A stretch of DNA of 22,357 bases from a virus, in the UHGV virus genome UHGV-0078062. One strand, 5' to 3'. Positions 7,936 through 17,493 of the stretch are shown here, piece after piece. The translations under genes and the position numbers were made by a program. Positions within the stretch are counted from its first letter, which is position 1. Every line of letters begins with the position of its first letter. The notes beneath the pieces are model-generated. The model searched no databases and had not been told where the DNA came from. It saw only the letters and a list, made by a program, of their open reading frames with translations.

Positions 7936-9189
7936 ATGGCTAACCAATTAGCAAAAGACCTTGAAATCATGTTCGAAAACTACGTTGAAGGCTTTGAGGC
8001 CGCCTGCGTAGTTTCCCGTAACGCTAAAAAATTCCGTCCCGGTGATACAGCAATGCAGCGAGCAGGTGATGTTCTGTATCGTCCGCAGCATTACCACATG
8101 AACATTGAGGAAGGCCTAGACCTCAGCGGCAAAACGCCAACAGCACTGGTTCAGCGCCTTGTTCCTTCTGTGTTCAAGGAGCCGAAAAACATTCTGTACA
8201 CTCTGGATGCGCGTGAAATGCGTGACCCGGAACATAAAACTGAAGCTGGTCGCGCCGCAGGTATGCGCCTTGCTGCACAGATTGACTCTGACCTGATTTC
8301 CATGGTTACGCAGCGTGCTACTAACGTGATCACGATGGCTGACTCAACCACAGGTTCACAGGGCCGTGATTTGTGGAACTGTGCGGCAGGTATTGATGCC
8401 ACCATGACGGCGATTGGTGTACCTCAGGGTATCAACCGTCGCTCTTTCTGGAACCCCTTCAACTACAAAGACCTTGCTGGCGAGCTTGGTCACCGTGCCT
8501 ATGCTCAGGGCGCAACCCTGACAGCATACGAAAAAGCGCAAATCCCTCCGGTTGCGTCCTTCGATAGCTACAAGACCGATATTTCTGGTCGTGTTCCGAA
8601 GGGTACAGCAACTTCCATTACGCTGGCAGCAGCACCTGCGCACAAGGTTGAAGCGAAAGATGCTAACGATATGCCAGTGGATAACCGACAGGGGACCATT
8701 ACGGTATCTGCTGAAGGTTTGCAGGTTGGCGATGCGTTTACCATCGCAGGGGTGAATTCTGTACACCAGATCACCAAAGATACCACCGGGCAGCCGCAGG
8801 TATTCCGCGTTCTGGCAGTAAGCGGAACGACAGTAACTATCTCCCCGAAAATTCTGCCGCCTGACAACGCGGATGTCGCCAGCCGACCATATGCAAACGT
8901 TGATGCTAATGCGGCAAGTAGCGCAGCAATCACCATTCTCAACAAAAATGCCGCACCGGCTAACCTGTTCTGGGCTGATGGTTCTGTTGAACTGATGTAC
9001 GGCAAGCTGGCGTTCCCAACTGGTCAGGGTCCACAGGTAATGACAGCAACCACCGAGCAGGGCGCTACGCTGATCATGTCTTACGCCTTCGACCACATCA
9101 AAGGTGTAACCACAGCTCGTTTCACCACTCTGTACGGTTGCTCGGTACTGGTTCCTGAATATACGGGCATCGTTATTGCCGGGCAGTAA
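7936..9189 (+). CDS. Major capsid (coat) protein, P22 gp5-like HK97 fold
   Basis: 417 aa; segments (AKKFRPGDTAMQRAG; SRPYANVDANAASSAAITILNKNAAPANLFWADGSVEL) parallel recalled P22 coat sequence; followed by a strong terminator. Confidence 0.9.
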   Translation: MANQLAKDLEIMFENYVEGFEAACVVSRNAKKFRPGDTAMQRAGDVLYRPQHYHMNIEEGLDLSGKTPTALVQRLVPSVFKEPKNILYTLDAREMRDPEHKTEAGRAAGMRLAAQIDSDLISMVTQRATNVITMADSTTGSQGRDLWNCAAGIDATMTAIGVPQGINRRSFWNPFNYKDLAGELGHRAYAQGATLTAYEKAQIPPVASFDSYKTDISGRVPKGTATSITLAAAPAHKVEAKDANDMPVDNRQGTITVSAEGLQVGDAFTIAGVNSVHQITKDTTGQPQVFRVLAVSGTTVTISPKILPPDNADVASRPYANVDANAASSAAITILNKNAAPANLFWADGSVELMYGKLAFPTGQGPQVMTATTEQGATLIMSYAFDHIKGVTTARFTTLYGCSVLVPEYTGIVIAGQ

Positions 9190-9196
9190 TTTAGGT

Positions 9197-9219
9197 GGGG
9201 CTTCGGCCCCATTTTTATT
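9197..9219 (+). terminator. Rho-independent terminator after the coat gene (GGGGC-UUCG-GCCCC plus U-tract)
   Basis: Perfect 5-bp GC stem with TTCG tetraloop at 9197-9210 followed by ATTTTTATT. Confidence 0.65.
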
Positions 9220-9230
9220 GGGAGAAGACA

Positions 9231-9419
9231 ATGGCACGAACAATGCTCTATAAGCCGGGCAACATGATCACCTGTGGTCAGTTTGCTGTCGATTACATCA
9301 TTGTTGATGACGAAGAAGTTAAATCTCACCTGAAAAAAGGCTGGGTAAAAACTCCTGAAGAAACCGCAACGAAGCAAAAAGTGGCTAAGGCGGAAGAAGA
9401 TGGCGAAAACGAAGGGTGA
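9231..9419 (+). CDS. Hypothetical small protein (62 aa) between coat and gp4-like gene
   Basis: ATG 9231 with GGAG SD 6 nt upstream, directly after the coat terminator; the ORF-track start at 9195 lies inside the terminator hairpin and is rejected; 3' end overlaps the next gene by 20 nt. Confidence 0.5.
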   Translation: MARTMLYKPGNMITCGQFAVDYIIVDDEEVKSHLKKGWVKTPEETATKQKVAKAEEDGENEG

Positions 9420-9861
9420 TCTCGTTCTTAAGGCTTTACGAAAAGCCGGGCTGTATTCCAATGCCACGTTGACAGATGCCGACCCTCAGGCAATTGAAGA
9501 TGCCATTAATGACCTCGAAGACATGATGGCAGCATGGCAGGCGAAAGGTATCGAGCTTGGATATCAGTTTGCGGATACAGAAAACGGCATCATGCCGTTA
9601 CCTGACGATGATTCAGGTATCCCTGCATGGGCAAATGATGGCGTCGCTTTGAAGCTCGCTGTGCAAGTGTGCATGGATAACGTCATTCAGCCGTCGGATG
9701 CTCTCCTGACCGCTGCTGACAGTGCATATCAGACAATCTGTATCGCTTTAACCAAAATACCACCACTTGAGCGACGAAATGACATGCCTCGCGGTAGTGG
9801 TAACAAAAGCGCGTTTACGTGGAATCGGTTTTACATCGAGAAAGATGATCCGAGTACGTGA
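9400..9861 (+). CDS. Head completion / tail accessory factor (P22 gp4-like)
   Basis: 153 aa; N-terminus TKGDLVLKALRKAGLYSNATLTDADPQAIEDAINDLEDMMAAW parallels recalled P22 gp4. Confidence 0.85.
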   Translation: MAKTKGDLVLKALRKAGLYSNATLTDADPQAIEDAINDLEDMMAAWQAKGIELGYQFADTENGIMPLPDDDSGIPAWANDGVALKLAVQVCMDNVIQPSDALLTAADSAYQTICIALTKIPPLERRNDMPRGSGNKSAFTWNRFYIEKDDPST

Positions 9862-9870
9862 GGTGAATAA

Positions 9871-11289
9871 ATGCCGATTCAGCAACTTCCGCTTATGAAA
9901 GGTGTCGGCAAAGACTTTCGAAACGCCGACTATATCGACTATCTGCCAGTGAATATGCTGGCAACCCCCAAAGAAATCCTTAACAGCAGCGGATATCTTC
10001 GCTCATTCCCGGGCATTGCCAAACGTTCTGATGTGAACGGTGTATCTCGCGGCGTTGAGTACAACATGGCGCAGAATGCTGTTTATCGCGTATGTGGTGG
10101 CAAGCTGTATAAGGGCGAAAGTGAAGTCGGTGATGTTGCCGGAAGTGGTCGTGTATCAATGGCGCATGGTCGCACATCTCAGGCGGTAGGCGTTAATGGT
10201 CAACTGGTCGAGTATCGCTATGATGGCACGGTTAAAACCGTCTCAAACTGGCCTACAGACAGCGGATTCACGCAGTATGAGTTAGGCTCAGTCCGCGACA
10301 TTACACGCTTACGTGGGCGTTATGCGTGGTCAAAAGACGGCACTGATTCATGGTTTATCACTGACCTTGAAGACGAATCGCATCCTGACCGTTACAGCGC
10401 ACAATATCGCGCAGAATCGCAGCCGGACGGCATCATCGGTATCGGCACATGGCGAGACTTCATCGTCTGCTTTGGTTCATCGACGATTGAATATTTTTCC
10501 TTGACTGGTGCAACCACTGTTGGTGCCGCTTTGTATGTCGCCCAGCCATCGTTGATGGTGCAAAAAGGAATAGCCGGAACCTACTGCAAAACGCCGTTTG
10601 CTGATTCGTATGCGTTCATCAGCAATCCGGCAACAGGTGCGCCGTCTGTGTATATCATCGGCTCTGGTCAGGTATCACCAATCGCCAGCGCGAGCATTGA
10701 GAAAATACTACGCTCCTACACTGCTGATGAACTGGCTGATGGCGTGATGGAGTCTCTGCGATTTGATGCGCATGAGTTGCTGATTATCCATCTTCCGCGC
10801 CACGTACTCGTGTACGACGCATCTTCAAGCGCCAATGGTCCGCAATGGTGTGTGCTGAAAACAGGCTTATATGACGATGTGTACCGCGCTATTGACTTCA
10901 TTTACGAAGGAAATCAGATAACGTGCGGCGATAAGCTGGAATCGGTTACCGGGAAATTGCAGTTCGATATCAGCAGTCAGTATGGGCTTCAACAGGAACA
11001 CCTGCTGTTTACTCCGTTGTTCAAAGCGGATAACGCCAGAGTGTTCGATCTTGAGGTTGAATCGTCAACTGGCGTTGCGCAGTACGCCGACCGCCTGTTC
11101 CTCTCTGCAACCACTGACGGCATAAATTACGGACGTGAGCAGATGATTGAACAGAATGAACCGTTCGTTTACGACAAACGTGTTTTGTGGAAGCGAGTCG
11201 GGCGCATCAGGAAAAATTTCGGCTTCAAATTGCGCGTTATCACGAAGTCACCTGTCACTCTGTCAGGCTGCCAGATAAGGATTGAGTAA
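9871..11289 (+). CDS. Tail accessory factor (P22 gp10-like)
   Basis: 472 aa, same length as P22 gp10 as recalled, and in the same gene position; GAGGTG SD upstream. Confidence 0.8.
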
Positions 11290-12137
11290 TGGCTGATTCG
11301 AATCTCAATGTGCCGGTAATCATTCAGGCTACACGGCTCGACACATCAGTCCTTCCACGCAATATCTTCTCGCAGTCGTATCTGCTTTACGTTATCGCAC
11401 AGGGTACTGATGTTGGTAACGTGGCTAACAAGGCCAACGAGGCCGGACAGGGCGCTTATGATGCACAAGTCAGGAACGATGAGCAGGATGTGATTCTCGC
11501 TGATCATGAGCAGCGAATTTCTGCTGCGGAAGCAACGCTTGTTAATCATGAGGAGCGAATCAGCCAGGCAGAATCAACTCTTCAGGAACATGAAACACGA
11601 ATCACTCAGAATGAAAGCGATATTGCGTCGCTTGATACCAGAGTTCAGTCGCTGGAGTCGCAGGTTTCAGACCATGAAACGCGCATTGATGCTCTGGAGT
11701 ATGCAACCACACGCAAGAAGTCAGAGGTTGTTTACTCTGGCGTATCAGTAACCATCCCGACAGCGCCGACCAACCTTGTTAGCCTGCTGAAAACGCTCAC
11801 GCCGTCATCCGGGACGTTGGCACCATTCTTCGACACTGTTAACAACAAGATGGTTGTGTTCAACGAGAACAAAACCTTGTTCTTCAAGCTGTCGATCGTC
11901 GGGACGTGGCCCAGCGGAACCGCCAACAGGTCAATGCAGCTAACCTTTTCCGGCTCTGTTCCTGATACGCTGGTCAGCAGTCGTAATGCGGCGACAACAA
12001 ACGACAACATCCTGTTAGCTACATTCTTCAGCGTGGATAAAGACGGATTTCTTGCCACAAATGGCAGTACGTTAACCATTCAGTCGTATGGTGCGGCGTT
12101 TACTGCCACAACCATCAAGATAATCGCGGAGCAGTGA
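11289..12137 (+). CDS. Tail needle (P22 gp26-like) with C-terminal knob extension
   Basis: 282 aa; N-terminus [43 protein letters not shown] close to recalled gp26; heptad coiled-coil repeats ([43 protein letters not shown]...); longer than P22 gp26, consistent with an Sf6/HK620-type knob. Confidence 0.9.
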
Positions 12138-12592
12138 TGATTCAGTTCAAACCAACGCGAAACATCGACCTGATCGAAGCAGTCGGAAATCACCCTGACA
12201 TTATTGCCGGAAGCAACAATGGTGATGGATACGATTACAAGCCTGAATGCCGTTACTTTGAGGTTAACGTGCACGGTCAGTTTGGCGGCATTGTTTACTA
12301 TCAGGAGATTCAGCCGTTGGCATTCGATTGCCACGCCATGTACCTGCCAGAGATTCGCGGCTTCAGCAAGGAAATCGGGCTGGCGTTCTGGCGATACATT
12401 CTGACTAACACCACCGTTCAGTGCGTCACATCGTTCGCCGCACGCAAATTCCGCCACGGGCAGATTTACTGCGCAATGATTGGCCTTAAGCGTGTCGGAA
12501 CCATCAAGAAATACTTTAAAGGCGTGGATGACGTGACTTTTTACAGCGCCACACGCGAAGAACTAATCGACTTCCTGAATCACGGGAGATAG
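12134..12592 (+). CDS. Virion/assembly protein in the P22 gp14 position (function unclear)
   Basis: 152-aa ORF overlapping the needle stop (ATGA) and abutting the ejection-protein genes; assignment by synteny only. Confidence 0.55.
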
Positions 12593-12594
12593 CC

Positions 12595-13287
12595 ATGTTA
12601 TATGCATTTAAGCTGGGCAGAAAACTGCGCGGCGAGGAACCTTATTGCCCTGAAAAAGGCGGGAAAGGTGGCAGTTCTGATAAAAGCGCAAAGTATGCCG
12701 CAGAAGCCCAGAAGTATGCAGCAGACCTGCAAAATCAGCAGTGGCAGACGATCATGAAAAACCTTGCTCCGTTCACGCCTCTTGCGGAGCAGTATGTTAA
12801 CCAGTTGCAGAATCTTTCCAGTTTAGAAGGTCAGGGGCAGGCACTTAATCAGTATTACAACTCTCAGCAGTATAAAGACCTTGCAGGTCAGGCGCGTTAC
12901 CAGAGTCTTGCTGCTGCGGAGGCGACGGGTGGACTTGGTTCGACAGCCACAAGCAATCAACTGGCTACGATCGCGCCGACACTCGGTCAGTCTTGGTTAT
13001 CAAACCAGATGAGCAATTACAACAATCTGGCAAACGTTGGGCTTGGTGCGCTGCAAGGTCAGGCAAACGCCGGGCAGACGTACGCCAACAACATGAGCAG
13101 CATTGCACAGCAAAGCGCAGCACTTGCCGCTGCTAATGCCAATAAACCATCAAGTCTTCAGACTGCAATTAGCGGTGGCACGTCTGGTGCGATTGCCGGT
13201 GCAGGTCTTGCCAGCCTTTTGGGAACATCAACGCCTTGGGGCGCTGGCATTGGTGCTGGTATCGGATTGCTTGGCTCGTTGTTTTAA
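12595..13287 (+). CDS. Ejection (internal virion) protein, P22 gp7-like
   Basis: 230 aa (P22 gp7 is 229 aa as recalled); N-terminus MLYAFKLGRKLRGEEPYCPEKGGKGG; Gly/Ala-rich C-terminus; syntenic. Confidence 0.75.
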   Translation: MLYAFKLGRKLRGEEPYCPEKGGKGGSSDKSAKYAAEAQKYAADLQNQQWQTIMKNLAPFTPLAEQYVNQLQNLSSLEGQGQALNQYYNSQQYKDLAGQARYQSLAAAEATGGLGSTATSNQLATIAPTLGQSWLSNQMSNYNNLANVGLGALQGQANAGQTYANNMSSIAQQSAALAAANANKPSSLQTAISGGTSGAIAGAGLASLLGTSTPWGAGIGAGIGLLGSLF

Positions 13288-13296
13288 GGGGTAATC

Positions 13297-14628
13297 ATGG
13301 CTACTTGGCAAGGAACAAACGGCGGATTGTTGGCTGGTATCGGCGGCGTCAACTCAAACGCTCCGAGCGTAAATGACATCGGCAATACGCTTCAGCTTAT
13401 CAGGCAGAACAATGATATTGAGCGTTCAGGCGCTAACAATGTTGGGCTGACTGCTTTGCAAGGCCTTTCAGGTATTGCGGGGGTGTTTCAGCAGGAAAAG
13501 CAGGCTCAGCGGCAGAAAGAATTTCAGCAGGCATACGCTAATGCTTATGCGTCTGGTGATCGCGGTGCTTTGCGTCAGTTGGCTACTCAATATCCAGAAC
13601 AGATTGAATCCGTTCGTAAAGGCATGGGATTCATTGATGAAGATCAGCGTAATTCTATCGGCACCTTAGCGGCTGGCGCACGCCTTGCGTCATCGTCTCC
13701 AGAAGCAATGCAATCATGGCTGCAAAACAACGCCGGTGAGTTAGCTCGTGTTGGCGTTAATCCTCAGGACGTCGCTCAGATGTACCAACAGAACCCGCGG
13801 CAGTTCGGCGAATTTGTCGATCACCTGGGGATGAACAGTCTCGGACCCGAAAAATACTTTGACCTACAGGATAAAATGCAGGGTCGCCAGGTTACCATGC
13901 GCGGTCAGGATCTGGATTCGCAAACCGCCGCTCGGAATCAGGCAATCACAATGCGCGGGCAAGATATCCAGGCGAATTTAGGTCAGCAGCGCATTAATCT
14001 GGACGCAGAAACAAACCGCATTAACAACGAAAATAAGCGCCTTGACCGGATGCTATCAGCAGAAACTAACGACCTGAAGCGCCAGGAAATACAGAGCCGC
14101 ATAGCAGCCAACAACCAGCAGTTGCAGCAGAAGCAGCAAGCGCTAAATGATGGCTACAAAGACGGCATCAACACCCTCACAACCAGCATGTTCACTCTGA
14201 ACGATATCGTTAGTTCTCCTTCACTTAAGAGCATTACAGGCTTACGTGGAGTAATCCCCAACGTTCCAGGCTCACAGGCTGCAGACACTCAGGCACGACT
14301 TGATACCTTTAAATCCCAAGCATACCTGACAGCGGTTCAGGCCATGCGAGGCATGGGCGCACTTTCTGATGCCGAGGGCAAAAAGCTCGACCAGGCTGTT
14401 GGTTCGCTGCAGAACTCGCAGAGCGAGGAGTCCTTTCGTCGCAACGCTGGCGTCATCCTGAACACGCTCAACCAGAAGCGTAATGAGGCGGTTGGTAAGT
14501 ACGTTCAGCAAAACGGTATCAAGCGAGTGGAAGCGCCTCAGGCTTCTATAGATTACCTGAAGCAGCACCCCGAGCTGTCAATCGACTTCATTAATCGCTA
14601 CGGATATCTTCCATCTTTGGGGCAGTAA
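13297..14628 (+). CDS. Ejection protein, P22 gp20-like
   Basis: 443 aa, Gln-rich helical protein in the gp20 position. Confidence 0.7.
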   Translation: MATWQGTNGGLLAGIGGVNSNAPSVNDIGNTLQLIRQNNDIERSGANNVGLTALQGLSGIAGVFQQEKQAQRQKEFQQAYANAYASGDRGALRQLATQYPEQIESVRKGMGFIDEDQRNSIGTLAAGARLASSSPEAMQSWLQNNAGELARVGVNPQDVAQMYQQNPRQFGEFVDHLGMNSLGPEKYFDLQDKMQGRQVTMRGQDLDSQTAARNQAITMRGQDIQANLGQQRINLDAETNRINNENKRLDRMLSAETNDLKRQEIQSRIAANNQQLQQKQQALNDGYKDGINTLTTSMFTLNDIVSSPSLKSITGLRGVIPNVPGSQAADTQARLDTFKSQAYLTAVQAMRGMGALSDAEGKKLDQAVGSLQNSQSEESFRRNAGVILNTLNQKRNEAVGKYVQQNGIKRVEAPQASIDYLKQHPELSIDFINRYGYLPSLGQ

Positions 14629-17022
14629 ATGGCTAATTACCGTGATTTGTTAGAGCAGGCTGGCGCACGTTACGGTGTGCCAGAAGGGTTGATGACTGCA
14701 CTGGGTGCCAAGGAGTCTTCTTACAACCCTGCCGCAGTAAGCTCCGCCGGGGCTGTAGGATTGACTCAGGTCATGCCTGGGACATGGCGTGATATGGGTT
14801 ATACCGATGAGCAAATGCAAAACCCCGAATATCAGGCTGACGCTGGCGCGCGCTATCTGGCAAAGATGTACCAGCAGTTTGGTAACTGGCGTGACGCTCT
14901 TCAGGCTTATCACGACGGTCCCGGCAACGTTATGAAGGCAAAGCGTGGTGAATATACGCCAGGACCTGAAGGCCGCGGTTACGTTGATGATCGCTTTGCT
15001 CAATGGGCGGGTGACCCGGTGACAGACTCAACAGTCGAACAGCGCGCCACCTCTGCAAAGGTACATCCTCAGCAAGACCCTAACAACCCGTTTGCACAAC
15101 TGGAAGTACAGTCATCCGAACAAGTATCGGCATCAGGTGTGCAGTCAGACCCAAATAATCCATTTGCTCAGATTGAGCAGCAGGCAGCCAGTCAGCAGCC
15201 ACCTCAACCCGTAAGTTCTGTCGCACCGAAACCTGTTCAGCAGCAAGGCGGAATAATGTCTGACCTTGGTAATGGACTTGCTGAAACCGGGCGCGGCATA
15301 CTACAGGCAGGAATCAACGTAGCGAACATACCTGCTGAACTCACTGATGCTGTAACAAGCGCGGCGGCTTGGGCTGGCGGTAAACTCGGCATTGGCGATG
15401 GTACATATCAACCAGCACCACGAGTAACAACGCAGGGATTAGAGCGGGACTTTGGCCTTCGGCAAGGCGCGCTGACTCCACAAACGACAGAGGGAAGGGT
15501 ATTTGCTGAAGCATTGCCTTACCTTACTCCTGCTGGCGTTGAGAGAGCGGCAGCACAGGCACCAACACTTGCTGGTCGAATTGCTCAGGGGGCAACTCGC
15601 CTTCTAGCAGAAAACGCAGTTGGATCACTTGCTGCAAATAGTGCGAAAGATGATGCGGAAGCACTCGCCACCGATTTAGGCGTTGGTGTACTTGCTGGCG
15701 GTGCTATTAACGCTGCCGGACGTGGATTAGGTGCTGCTTATCGTGGCGTTCGTGGTGCTATCGCGCCAGAAGCACAGCAAGCTATCAGATTTGCAGAGCG
15801 TGAAGGAGTTCCTCTGCACACCACAGACCTGTTACAGCCTACTTCCCGCGTCGGAAAAATGGCGCAGACTACAGCAGAAAATATTCCTCTGGCTGGCACA
15901 AGCGGAATGAGAGCAACGCAACAGGAAGCGAGAAGCCAGTTGGTGCAGAGATTTGCTGATAAATTCGGTGAGTATGATCCATCTGTTGTTATTGACAGCC
16001 TTAAAGCGAAAACATCAGGAATTCGTCGTGCCGCCGGTAATCGACTGGAGCAGGTTCAGAATGCTATGGCTGGAGTAAACATTCAGCCTGCGCGAGCAAT
16101 TCAGCAGATTGATACAGAAATATCTAACCTGCAGAAGCTTGGTAAGGTTGCTGATAACGAGACTATTTCAAAACTTCAGTCATATCGTGATGAGCTTGTT
16201 CGCAATGCTGGTCCTGATGGTCCGGTAAATCTGGATTTGAAGCAATTAAGCGATCTGCGCAGCCAGTTCAGAATGGACGTGAAGGGTGAACGACCAGTGT
16301 TACCAAACCGTTCCGATGCTGCCATTCAGCGCGTTTACAAGGCGATGACAGACGATATCAATGGTGCCATTGGTCAGAATCTTGGCAACGATACTCTCCG
16401 TAAATATCAGCAGGCCAATGCCGTATACGCTGACGAAGCGGCGAAACTAAAGAATACCAGGCTGAAGAATGTTCTCATGAAAGGCGACCTGACGCCGGAA
16501 GTTGTCAACAACATGCTATTCAGCAAGAACAAATCGGAAATTAAGACGCTGTATAACTCAGTTGGTCGCGTTGGAAGAGCGCAAATGCGCAATGGCATCA
16601 TTGGAAAGGCGATAGAGAAATCAGGTGGTTCACCTGACCAGTTCCTTCGACAGCTTAACATCCTGCAAAACCAGACTGGCATCACATTTAAAGGTCAGGA
16701 AGCCGCTTATCTGAAAGGATTGAAAAACTACCTTCAGTCCACTCAGCAGGCAGCAAAAGCGGCAGTAACAACACCAACAGGGCAGCAAACCATCCCGTTC
16801 ATTATCGGATATGGGACGGCAATGAACCCGGCGACAACTGGCGCAGCAGTAAGCTACGGACTTCTTACTCGCGCCTATGAGAGCGAGCCATTCAGAAATG
16901 CAATGCTCCGAATGGCAAACACCCCACGCGGATCAACAGCGTTTGAGAAAGCCATGCAGCAGGCGCAAAAGGCCATTAACGCCCTTACTCAGGGTGCCAA
17001 GTCTGATGCGTTGTCAGAATAG
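14629..17022 (+). CDS. Ejection protein (gp16 position) with N-terminal lytic transglycosylase (SLT) domain
   Basis: 797 aa; N-terminus GLMTALGAKESSYNPAAVSSAGAVGLTQVMPGTW is a classic SLT family motif (catalytic ES, GLMQ-like and YN elements); tandem DPNNPFAQ repeats at about aa 150-185; Ala/Gly-rich middle. Confidence 0.8.
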   Translation: MANYRDLLEQAGARYGVPEGLMTALGAKESSYNPAAVSSAGAVGLTQVMPGTWRDMGYTDEQMQNPEYQADAGARYLAKMYQQFGNWRDALQAYHDGPGNVMKAKRGEYTPGPEGRGYVDDRFAQWAGDPVTDSTVEQRATSAKVHPQQDPNNPFAQLEVQSSEQVSASGVQSDPNNPFAQIEQQAASQQPPQPVSSVAPKPVQQQGGIMSDLGNGLAETGRGILQAGINVANIPAELTDAVTSAAAWAGGKLGIGDGTYQPAPRVTTQGLERDFGLRQGALTPQTTEGRVFAEALPYLTPAGVERAAAQAPTLAGRIAQGATRLLAENAVGSLAANSAKDDAEALATDLGVGVLAGGAINAAGRGLGAAYRGVRGAIAPEAQQAIRFAEREGVPLHTTDLLQPTSRVGKMAQTTAENIPLAGTSGMRATQQEARSQLVQRFADKFGEYDPSVVIDSLKAKTSGIRRAAGNRLEQVQNAMAGVNIQPARAIQQIDTEISNLQKLGKVADNETISKLQSYRDELVRNAGPDGPVNLDLKQLSDLRSQFRMDVKGERPVLPNRSDAAIQRVYKAMTDDINGAIGQNLGNDTLRKYQQANAVYADEAAKLKNTRLKNVLMKGDLTPEVVNNMLFSKNKSEIKTLYNSVGRVGRAQMRNGIIGKAIEKSGGSPDQFLRQLNILQNQTGITFKGQEAAYLKGLKNYLQSTQQAAKAAVTTPTGQQTIPFIIGYGTAMNPATTGAAVSYGLLTRAYESEPFRNAMLRMANTPRGSTAFEKAMQQAQKAINALTQGAKSDALSE

Positions 17023-17111
17023 CTTCGCAAACACCAGGAACGTGCAAAAACCAAATATGTAGAACGCAATGTTCAGCATATCTCTTTGCATAAATCCTCC
17101 GTAACTGATGG

Positions 17112-17372
17112 TTAGCTGCTGTCTTTTTTATATAGCTCCTTGAGCGTATCAAAGACAATTTTCTTAACCATATCAGATTGTTGTTCTGCCATACGCTCTG
17201 CATCGTCAATGTAAACAGATGCAGAGCTTTGTTTAGCCAATGATTCTTCAATCGCTGCAATTATCTCTGAGTTCAGCTACCTGTTATTCATCTTCGCACG
17301 CTGCTTAATTTTCGCGTGGAGTTCATGCGGAAGTCTCAAGTGAAACTGCGCCTCGTCGTATTTGCTGTACAT
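17112..17372 (-). pseudogene. mnt: mnt-like ribbon-helix-helix repressor gene interrupted by an in-frame amber codon (TAG at 17277-17279)
   Basis: Minus-strand translation from ATG 17372 gives MYSKYDEAQFHLRLPHELHAKIKQRAKMNNR-stop-LNSEIIAAIEESLAKQSSASVYIDDAERMAEQQSDMVKKIVFDTLKELYKKDSS; both halves parallel recalled P22 Mnt (FNFRMPMEVREKLKFRAEANGRSMNSELLQIV...NDAERLADEQSELVKKMVFDTLKDLYKK). The stop falls in the loop between RHH helices A and B. An upstream in-frame ATG at 17405 is an alternative start. Confidence 0.7.
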
Positions 17373-17493
17373 CCTTGATGCCTCACCAGTTGGGTGGAAT
17401 GGCATCGTAACCTACTGGATAAATACTCAATAGTACCATTTCGGTATGCAATCACATCATGGTTGCATCATATCATTCGTCTGGAGCAATGAA

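Follow-up and report, generated by a model that had tools for sequence, protein, structure and literature searches.

In a P22-like phage or prophage we identified an mnt gene, placed after the final ejection gene and before that for the tailspike, that is interrupted by a single amber codon and that probably represents a rare, recent loss-of-function allele within an already known type of locus, the mnt-only 'ant moron'. The stretch of DNA analysed here (the window, 22,357 nt) corresponds to the late region of a phage or prophage that belongs to the P22-like group (Lederbergvirus), and carries, in order, lysis genes, a Tad2-like gene, terminase, portal, scaffold, coat, head-completion and ejection genes, ending with a gp16-like gene (797 aa), after which come a short leftward mnt-like gene, the tailspike, an acyltransferase and an integrase. 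The late genes are all full length when compared with those of Sf101. The gp16-like ejection protein gene (14629-17022, + strand), recognised by translation and by the match to an N-terminal SLT domain, ends in TAG, and the tailspike gene (17494-19740, + strand) encodes a P22-type head-binding domain (Pfam Head_binding, 4.4e-67) and starts where PGAP places its start in E. coli W, which leaves a gap of 471 bp between the two. From the similarity breakpoints the moron extends approximately from 17093 to 17479: in phages without this mnt the similarity to the window ends at about 17092, and Sf6 and HK620-like phages resume it at about 17478-17480.

The region is an mnt-only ant moron, in which a leftward mnt is flanked by the homologues of gene 16 and gene 9 and no other regulator lies between them. 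In the explanation that we favour, it would be a minimal version of such a moron, made of one leftward gene for an Mnt-family RHH repressor with a Pmnt-like promoter and an Omnt-like operator, and would sit between the final ejection gene and the tailspike in a P22-like E. coli phage or prophage that is intact in other respects and was sampled in a metagenome. One C to A transversion would have changed Ser32 (TCG) into an amber codon, leaving a 31-residue product that is predicted to be inactive.

The mnt-like gene and its amber codon

The mnt-like gene comprises 86 codons on the minus strand (17112-17372), is interrupted at codon 32 and has its natural stop, TAA, at 17112-17114; the assignment is based on the translation and on Pfam, PDB and RefSeq matches. 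The minus-strand frame from 17405 to 17112 translates to MPFHPTGEASRMYSKYDEAQFHLRLPHELHAKIKQRAKMNNR, a stop, LNSEIIAAIEESLAKQSSASVYIDDAERMAEQQSDMVKKIVFDTLKELYKKDSS and the final stop, and reads KMNNR, stop, LNSEII around the interruption. When codon 32 is repaired to Ser, the resulting 86-aa protein matches the Pfam families PF03869 Arc (7.5e-15) and PF11423 Repressor_Mnt (3.4e-14), as well as the PDB entries 1MNT (3.4e-19) and 1QEY, the Mnt tetramerisation domain (1.7e-08), and shares 48.8% identity with P22 Mnt. The two halves scanned separately each match their own Pfam domain, and the part before the stop alone still matches Arc (4.7e-05). Of the features of the Mnt family, the N-terminal RHH domain is thus present and the C-terminal tetramerisation helix is encoded, the latter downstream of the TAG, where translation is not expected, and it is the uninterrupted frame that is absent. 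The original prediction had described a full-length Mnt-like RHH repressor from the letters alone and had suggested aligning it to intact mnt genes; this description was borne out, as both halves match Mnt domains and the alignment shows a single-base difference from the gene of E. coli W.

Compared with RefSeq WP_000287053.1, whose gene is annotated in the corresponding position of E. coli W and ET665, the repaired protein is identical in 85 of 86 residues. At least 1000 public contigs encode exactly the intact 86-aa protein, and an identity of this level to such a protein indicates that the frame is a real gene and did not arise by chance. The same gene (97.7-100% protein identity) is intact in the viable phages Sf101 and IME10 and in the E. 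coli W prophage, whereas the window copy is broken. The most likely start is the ATG at 17372 (86 codons, as in PGAP), which gives a truncated product of 31 aa. The alternative ATG at 17405 (97 codons), annotated as the start in Sf101, was rejected, since it falls within the conserved -10 element TACGAT (see below).

The interruption reads CTA on the + strand at 17277-17279, and hence TAG on the minus strand, in place of Ser32, which is encoded by TCG, TCT or TCA in relatives, as judged from the alignment with ET665, E. coli W, IME10 and Sf101 and from a codon census. Its counterpart in mature P22 Mnt is Ser29, part of the conserved motif GRS(M/L)NSE with which helix B begins, in agreement with the amber codon in the helix A/B loop that had been predicted. 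In E. coli W, ET665, IME10 and Sf101 this codon is TCG or TCT, and the remainder of the 401-bp alignment is 99% identical; counting from the start of the gene, the amber base is the sole difference between the window and E. coli W from -130 to +200. Given this identity to the E. coli W allele, a single C to A change on the coding strand, a transversion, accounts for the replacement of TCG by TAG.

In the census, which was gathered by a pattern that leaves the codon free and which counts both the window and its own copy (L069), codon 32 is TCG in 125 of 161 occurrences, TCT in 23, TCA in 10 and TAG in 3. The three TAG occurrences correspond to the window, its own source contig and one further locus, L011 (run SRR8095690), and among the pattern-anchored loci TAG is found only in the window's own contig. 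The corresponding part of the gene is present in 251 complete E. coli genomes, and none of them has the 61-mer with the amber codon. L011 has the same TAG in a different prophage background, in which mnt and the tailspike are separated by an HNH gene, and both the C-terminal mosaic of mnt and the neighbour of gp16 are different.

We considered the possibility that the TAG arose from faulty sequencing or assembly and that the real phage carries TCG. Positions 8294-22357 of the window are 100% identical to a metagenome assembly contig (IMGVR_UViG_3300045988_132863), at least 10 similar P22-like contigs from the same metagenome point to strain mixtures, and the change affects a single base in an otherwise perfect copy, all of which is compatible with an error. 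However, substitution errors are uncommon in consensus assemblies, and the identical change occurs in an unrelated data set and in a different prophage (L011), so the amber allele exists in nature. An error is therefore unlikely, and we retain the reading of a genuine, rare allele.

The surroundings of codon 32 show a further peculiarity. Six metagenome or Logan contigs stop exactly after mnt codon 31 (about 17279-17280 in the window), and the DNA similarity to phage VSe13 starts at codon 31/32. From these sequence comparisons, the conserved RS(L/M)NSE stretch resembles a junction of mosaic recombination as well as a branch point of assembly graphs.

Conservation of the mnt-only layout

P22 carries arc, ant, sar and sieA at this place, whereas the gap between the gp16-like gene and the tailspike in the window is devoid of them and has an mnt interrupted by the amber codon. 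No homologues of Arc, Ant, KilA or Rha were found anywhere in the window, and tblastn searches of it with the antirepressors of P22, CUS-3, Kapi1 and VSe13, plus KilA and Rha, gave zero matches. No Rfam family, sar included, was matched in 16500-18000 up to E = 1, and no ORF that could be an arc divergent from mnt is present in the 121 bp that separate mnt from the ATG of the tailspike. With regard to the P22 immI set (mnt-arc-ant-sar), ant, arc and sar are thus all absent. The original prediction was correct in stating that arc, ant and sieA are missing from a gap of about 470 bp, and the search for an ant homologue and for Mnt operators that it had put forward yielded no ant in the window and an Omnt-like palindrome at 17433-17447 (see below).

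The same arrangement is found well beyond the window. An 801-bp query spanning the end of gp16, mnt and the start of the tailspike gene has full-length matches in 143 complete E. coli genomes and in phage IME10, and phage Sf101 matches from mnt into the tailspike, with mnt alone in the same slot. P22-type arc, ant or sieA were found in none of the 161 related loci. The spacer between mnt and the tailspike is exactly 121 bp in 120 of these 161 loci, and that between gp16 and mnt is 89 bp in 96 of them. Among approximately 150 full-length copies of mnt, all but about five are intact (roughly 97%), and the broken ones comprise the amber alleles, a 1-bp deletion (L121) and C-terminal replacements (L068, L167). 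Over codons 1-70 we counted 40 synonymous and 42 nonsynonymous distinct segregating changes, and the resulting per-site nonsynonymous to synonymous ratio of about 0.25 indicates that mnt is under purifying selection. The DNA-binding beta-strand is nearly invariant across the copies.

The mnt-only layout is therefore inherited, widespread and maintained, and the region is not a decaying one. It had been proposed that the antirepressor module was deleted and that its repressor is decaying; a recent deletion of this kind in the window is not supported, given the presence of the layout in 143 genomes, the lack of arc, ant and sieA in all 161 loci and the ratio of 0.25. The related description of the region as a 'decayed immI' holds inasmuch as mnt carries an amber codon and stands without arc, ant and sieA, and fails inasmuch as the region is conserved and the only damage in the window is one nucleotide.

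The mnt-only module has already been described: such 'ant morons' were reported for ST64T, ST104 and L (PMC2629481, PMC8022706), in a slot that bears this name, that is in rapid flux and in which damaged genes were reported (PMC2629481, PMC8022706). In these Salmonella phages, as in Sf101, IME10, the E. coli W prophage and the window, no regulator other than mnt stands between the ejection genes and the tailspike. L and ST64T differ from the window in having an intact mnt, plus orf62, and another Mnt specificity type. For the mnt of phage L, both a new function and a remnant were considered (PMC8022706).

Two minor observations came from the same set of loci. About 15 of the 161 have an HNH endonuclease gene between mnt and the tailspike (L011, 6992-7492), with a spacer of 654-728 bp and not 121 bp, and the same gene is annotated in phage Kapi1. 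In addition, two records labelled as E. coli DH5alpha (NZ_CP026085.1 and NZ_CM135829.1, 4.83 Mb) carry this P22-like prophage with the same score as E. coli W, and the strain labels of these records may be wrong.

Predicted promoter and operator of the mnt gene

The region upstream of mnt was aligned for the window, JEP4, VSe13, L, Gally and P22, guided by the positions annotated in P22 for Pmnt, Pant, Oarc and Omnt. A Shine-Dalgarno sequence, GAGG, is located at 17381-17384 (minus strand), 8 nt before the ATG at 17372, within a stretch, GAGGCATCA(A/G)(G/A)(A/G)ATG, that is kept in VSe13, L and Gally and that is slightly different in JEP4 (GAGGCATTGATGATG). Further upstream, a putative Pmnt-like -10 element, TACGAT (17404-17409, minus strand), which contains the ATG of the 97-codon ORF, aligns with the -10 of P22 Pmnt, TATCAT, and has TATGAT, TAAGAT or TACGAT as counterparts in L, Gally, JEP4 and VSe13. 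The corresponding -35 element, TTGAGT (17425-17430, minus strand), aligns with TTGAGA of P22 and shows 0.22 distinct mutations per site across 127 loci. The spacer between the two elements is 15 nt in the window type, 2 nt shorter than in other Mnt types, and this unusual length makes the promoter assignment uncertain. A promoter scan also predicted CTGACA-17-AATGAT (17500-17472), which we judged less likely than the P22-homologous Pmnt, since it is unconserved in other Mnt types.

Directly 5' of the -35, at 17433-17447, lies the Omnt-like palindrome ATACCGAAATGGTAC (mnt strand), in the position of the P22 mnt operator GGTCCACCGTGGACC; it has 0.33 mutations per site. The two operators differ in sequence (GGTCCAC-C-GTGGACC in P22 versus ATACC-N5-GGTAC in the window), and so do the DNA-binding beta-strands of the proteins (PHFNFRM in P22 versus AQFHLRL in the window). 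Across Mnt types the operator half-sites co-vary with the residues of the beta-strand, HFNFR being paired with GGTCCAC in P22, QFNLR with AGACCAC in Gally and L, and QFHLR with ATACC in the window, JEP4 and VSe13. Based on this correspondence, we infer that ATACCGAAATGGTAC is the Mnt operator, the promoter and operator both being predicted from homology of position and sequence. In the 127 loci, the operator and promoter have 0.22-0.33 distinct mutations per site, versus about 1.0 at synonymous sites. The window shares with P22 an mnt that is placed between genes 16 and 9 and runs opposite to the late operon, a predicted palindromic operator immediately 5' of the promoter -35, and a protein that combines an N-terminal RHH domain with a C-terminal tetramerisation helix.

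A second palindrome, ATGCAATCA-N5-TGGTTGCAT (17446-17468), is specific to the window type. It was rejected as an operator, since JEP4 and VSe13 lack it in spite of their identical DNA-binding strand, and since it is more variable than the adjoining stretch (0.70 per site). A rightward Pant-like promoter was also rejected, as its hexamers are degenerate by manual comparison with P22, and the promoter scan of the + strand found none. A search for the operator upstream of ant genes in other loci used a 14-base pattern that proved too loose; among the informative matches listed, the operator was always next to the tailspike gene or to an HNH insertion before it.

The truncated product and the role of an orphan Mnt

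The residual open frame (17280-17372, minus strand) encodes 31 residues, which from translation, domain scan and alignment to 1MNT contain the beta-strand and helix A only. In Arc and Mnt, helix B forms the core of the RHH dimer. Translation would stop before helix B and before the C-terminal tetramerisation helix, and without these elements the 31-aa product should neither fold nor bind DNA, as expected from what is established on the folding of Arc and Mnt, and hence should be inactive. With no ant to derepress, loss of Mnt forces no induction, which would make a null allele tolerable and would explain its presence in an otherwise intact genome, where it presumably can persist for a while.

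It is conceivable, on the other hand, that the amber allele is itself functional or selected, either by suppressor read-through, by re-initiation at the TTG at 17240, giving a 42-aa C-terminal tetramerisation fragment that would act as a dominant negative, or by an advantage of losing Mnt. The same codon is amber in two prophage backgrounds, out of only 39 one-step nonsense mutations possible in the gene, and a promoter-like site (17287-17260) and an in-frame TTG are present downstream of the stop. Nevertheless, the second case was retrieved by an exact look-up of the identical truncated peptide, a procedure that is biased to the same site and to which other nonsense alleles are invisible, and a coincidence of about 1 in 39 is not compelling, so we discounted the recurrence as a sign of selection. 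The allele is also very rare, and the other disruptions of mnt (L121, L068 and L167) are of different kinds. No Shine-Dalgarno sequence precedes the TTG. Of the seven contigs with a '42-aa protein' that the peptide look-up gave, six turned out not to be amber alleles, their genes being cut by contig ends. Recoding of the stop codon or suppression, a role for which had been entertained in the original prediction, was rejected, as the window contains no tRNA gene and the neighbouring gp16-like gene terminates at TAG, which is thus an ordinary stop here; read-through of the mnt TAG is unlikely. Taken as a whole, a functional or selected amber allele appears quite improbable, and a simple loss-of-function allele is the interpretation that we maintain.

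The intact relatives raise the question of what Mnt regulates in these phages. The tailspike-proximal Mnt of JEP4, VSe13 and CUS-3-like prophages has an identical DNA-binding strand and the same operator type as that of the window, and always adjoins the tailspike, but diverges in the C-terminal half (63-68% identity overall). The morons in question differ from that of the window in that their left part also has either Rha/KilA or a complete mnt-arc-ant set, and in the CUS-3-like ones two further mnt genes, an arc-like gene, ant and kilA are found to the left of the tailspike-proximal mnt. One CUS-3-like ant moron (L222, 7309-10680; IMGVR_UViG_2648501336_000006) has three Mnt-family genes, two in tandem and one by the tailspike, together with ant and with arc-like and KilA-like genes, and its tailspike is of the K1 endosialidase type.

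That this Mnt type is always by the tailspike, even beside a full mnt-arc-ant set, argues that the target of the orphan Mnt is not ant. Our best guess is that in the intact relatives it acts in autoregulation and/or in the control of transcription entering the tailspike gene. Mnt control of transcription into the tailspike gene was raised for P22 by Adams et al. 1985, as cited in PMC2629481. The purifying selection, together with the operator, the adjacency to the tailspike and the occurrence beside a full mnt-arc-ant set, would fit an ant-independent role. As a tentative proposal, the tailspike-proximal Mnt (AQFHLRL, ATACC-N5-GGTAC) might be a regulator with a conserved role of this kind, setting transcription into the tailspike gene or acting in trans on another phage, in which case the amber allele of the window would be a natural knock-out of that function.

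The opposite view, that the whole region is a decaying immI remnant and mnt a functionless relic throughout the lineage, is one of the two possibilities raised in the phage L paper (PMC8022706), and it fits the lack of an ant left to regulate and the degenerate Pant-like hexamers. It is nonetheless very improbable in light of the purifying selection acting on the gene and on its operator and promoter, the intactness of nearly all of the roughly 150 copies, the record of the exact protein on so many contigs, and the retention of the same Mnt type by the tailspike where a full mnt-arc-ant set is also present. On its own the finding carries little weight, as it concerns a rare null allele of an accessory repressor whose gene lies where P22-like late operons vary most. 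Of more consequence is that an orphan mnt and its operator are kept by selection in hundreds of E. coli prophages without an antirepressor, which sharpens the question raised for phage L of what Mnt does without ant, and the natural amber and frameshift alleles could be used as knock-outs to probe this role.

Some features of the surrounding genes are also worth mentioning. The SLT domain at the N-terminus of the gp16-like protein is of the lytic transglycosylase type. A gene on the + strand between the lysis genes and the terminase (1437-1916) encodes a 159-aa protein with a Tad2-like domain (Thoeris anti-defence 2, PF11195), and the tailspike is followed by an Acyl_transf_3 gene (O-antigen acetylase-like) and an integrase (19741-22177), as in Sf6 and Sf101. 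Just downstream of mnt and on the same strand, there is a hydrophobic ORF of 25 aa, MQRDMLNIAFYIFGFCTFLVFAKLF (17014-17091, minus strand), which has GGAGG 4 nt upstream and overlaps the final three codons of the gp16-like gene. This ORF is free of stops and frameshifts in 96 related loci, with 10 synonymous versus 13 nonsynonymous distinct changes, and it may encode a small membrane protein that is co-transcribed with mnt.
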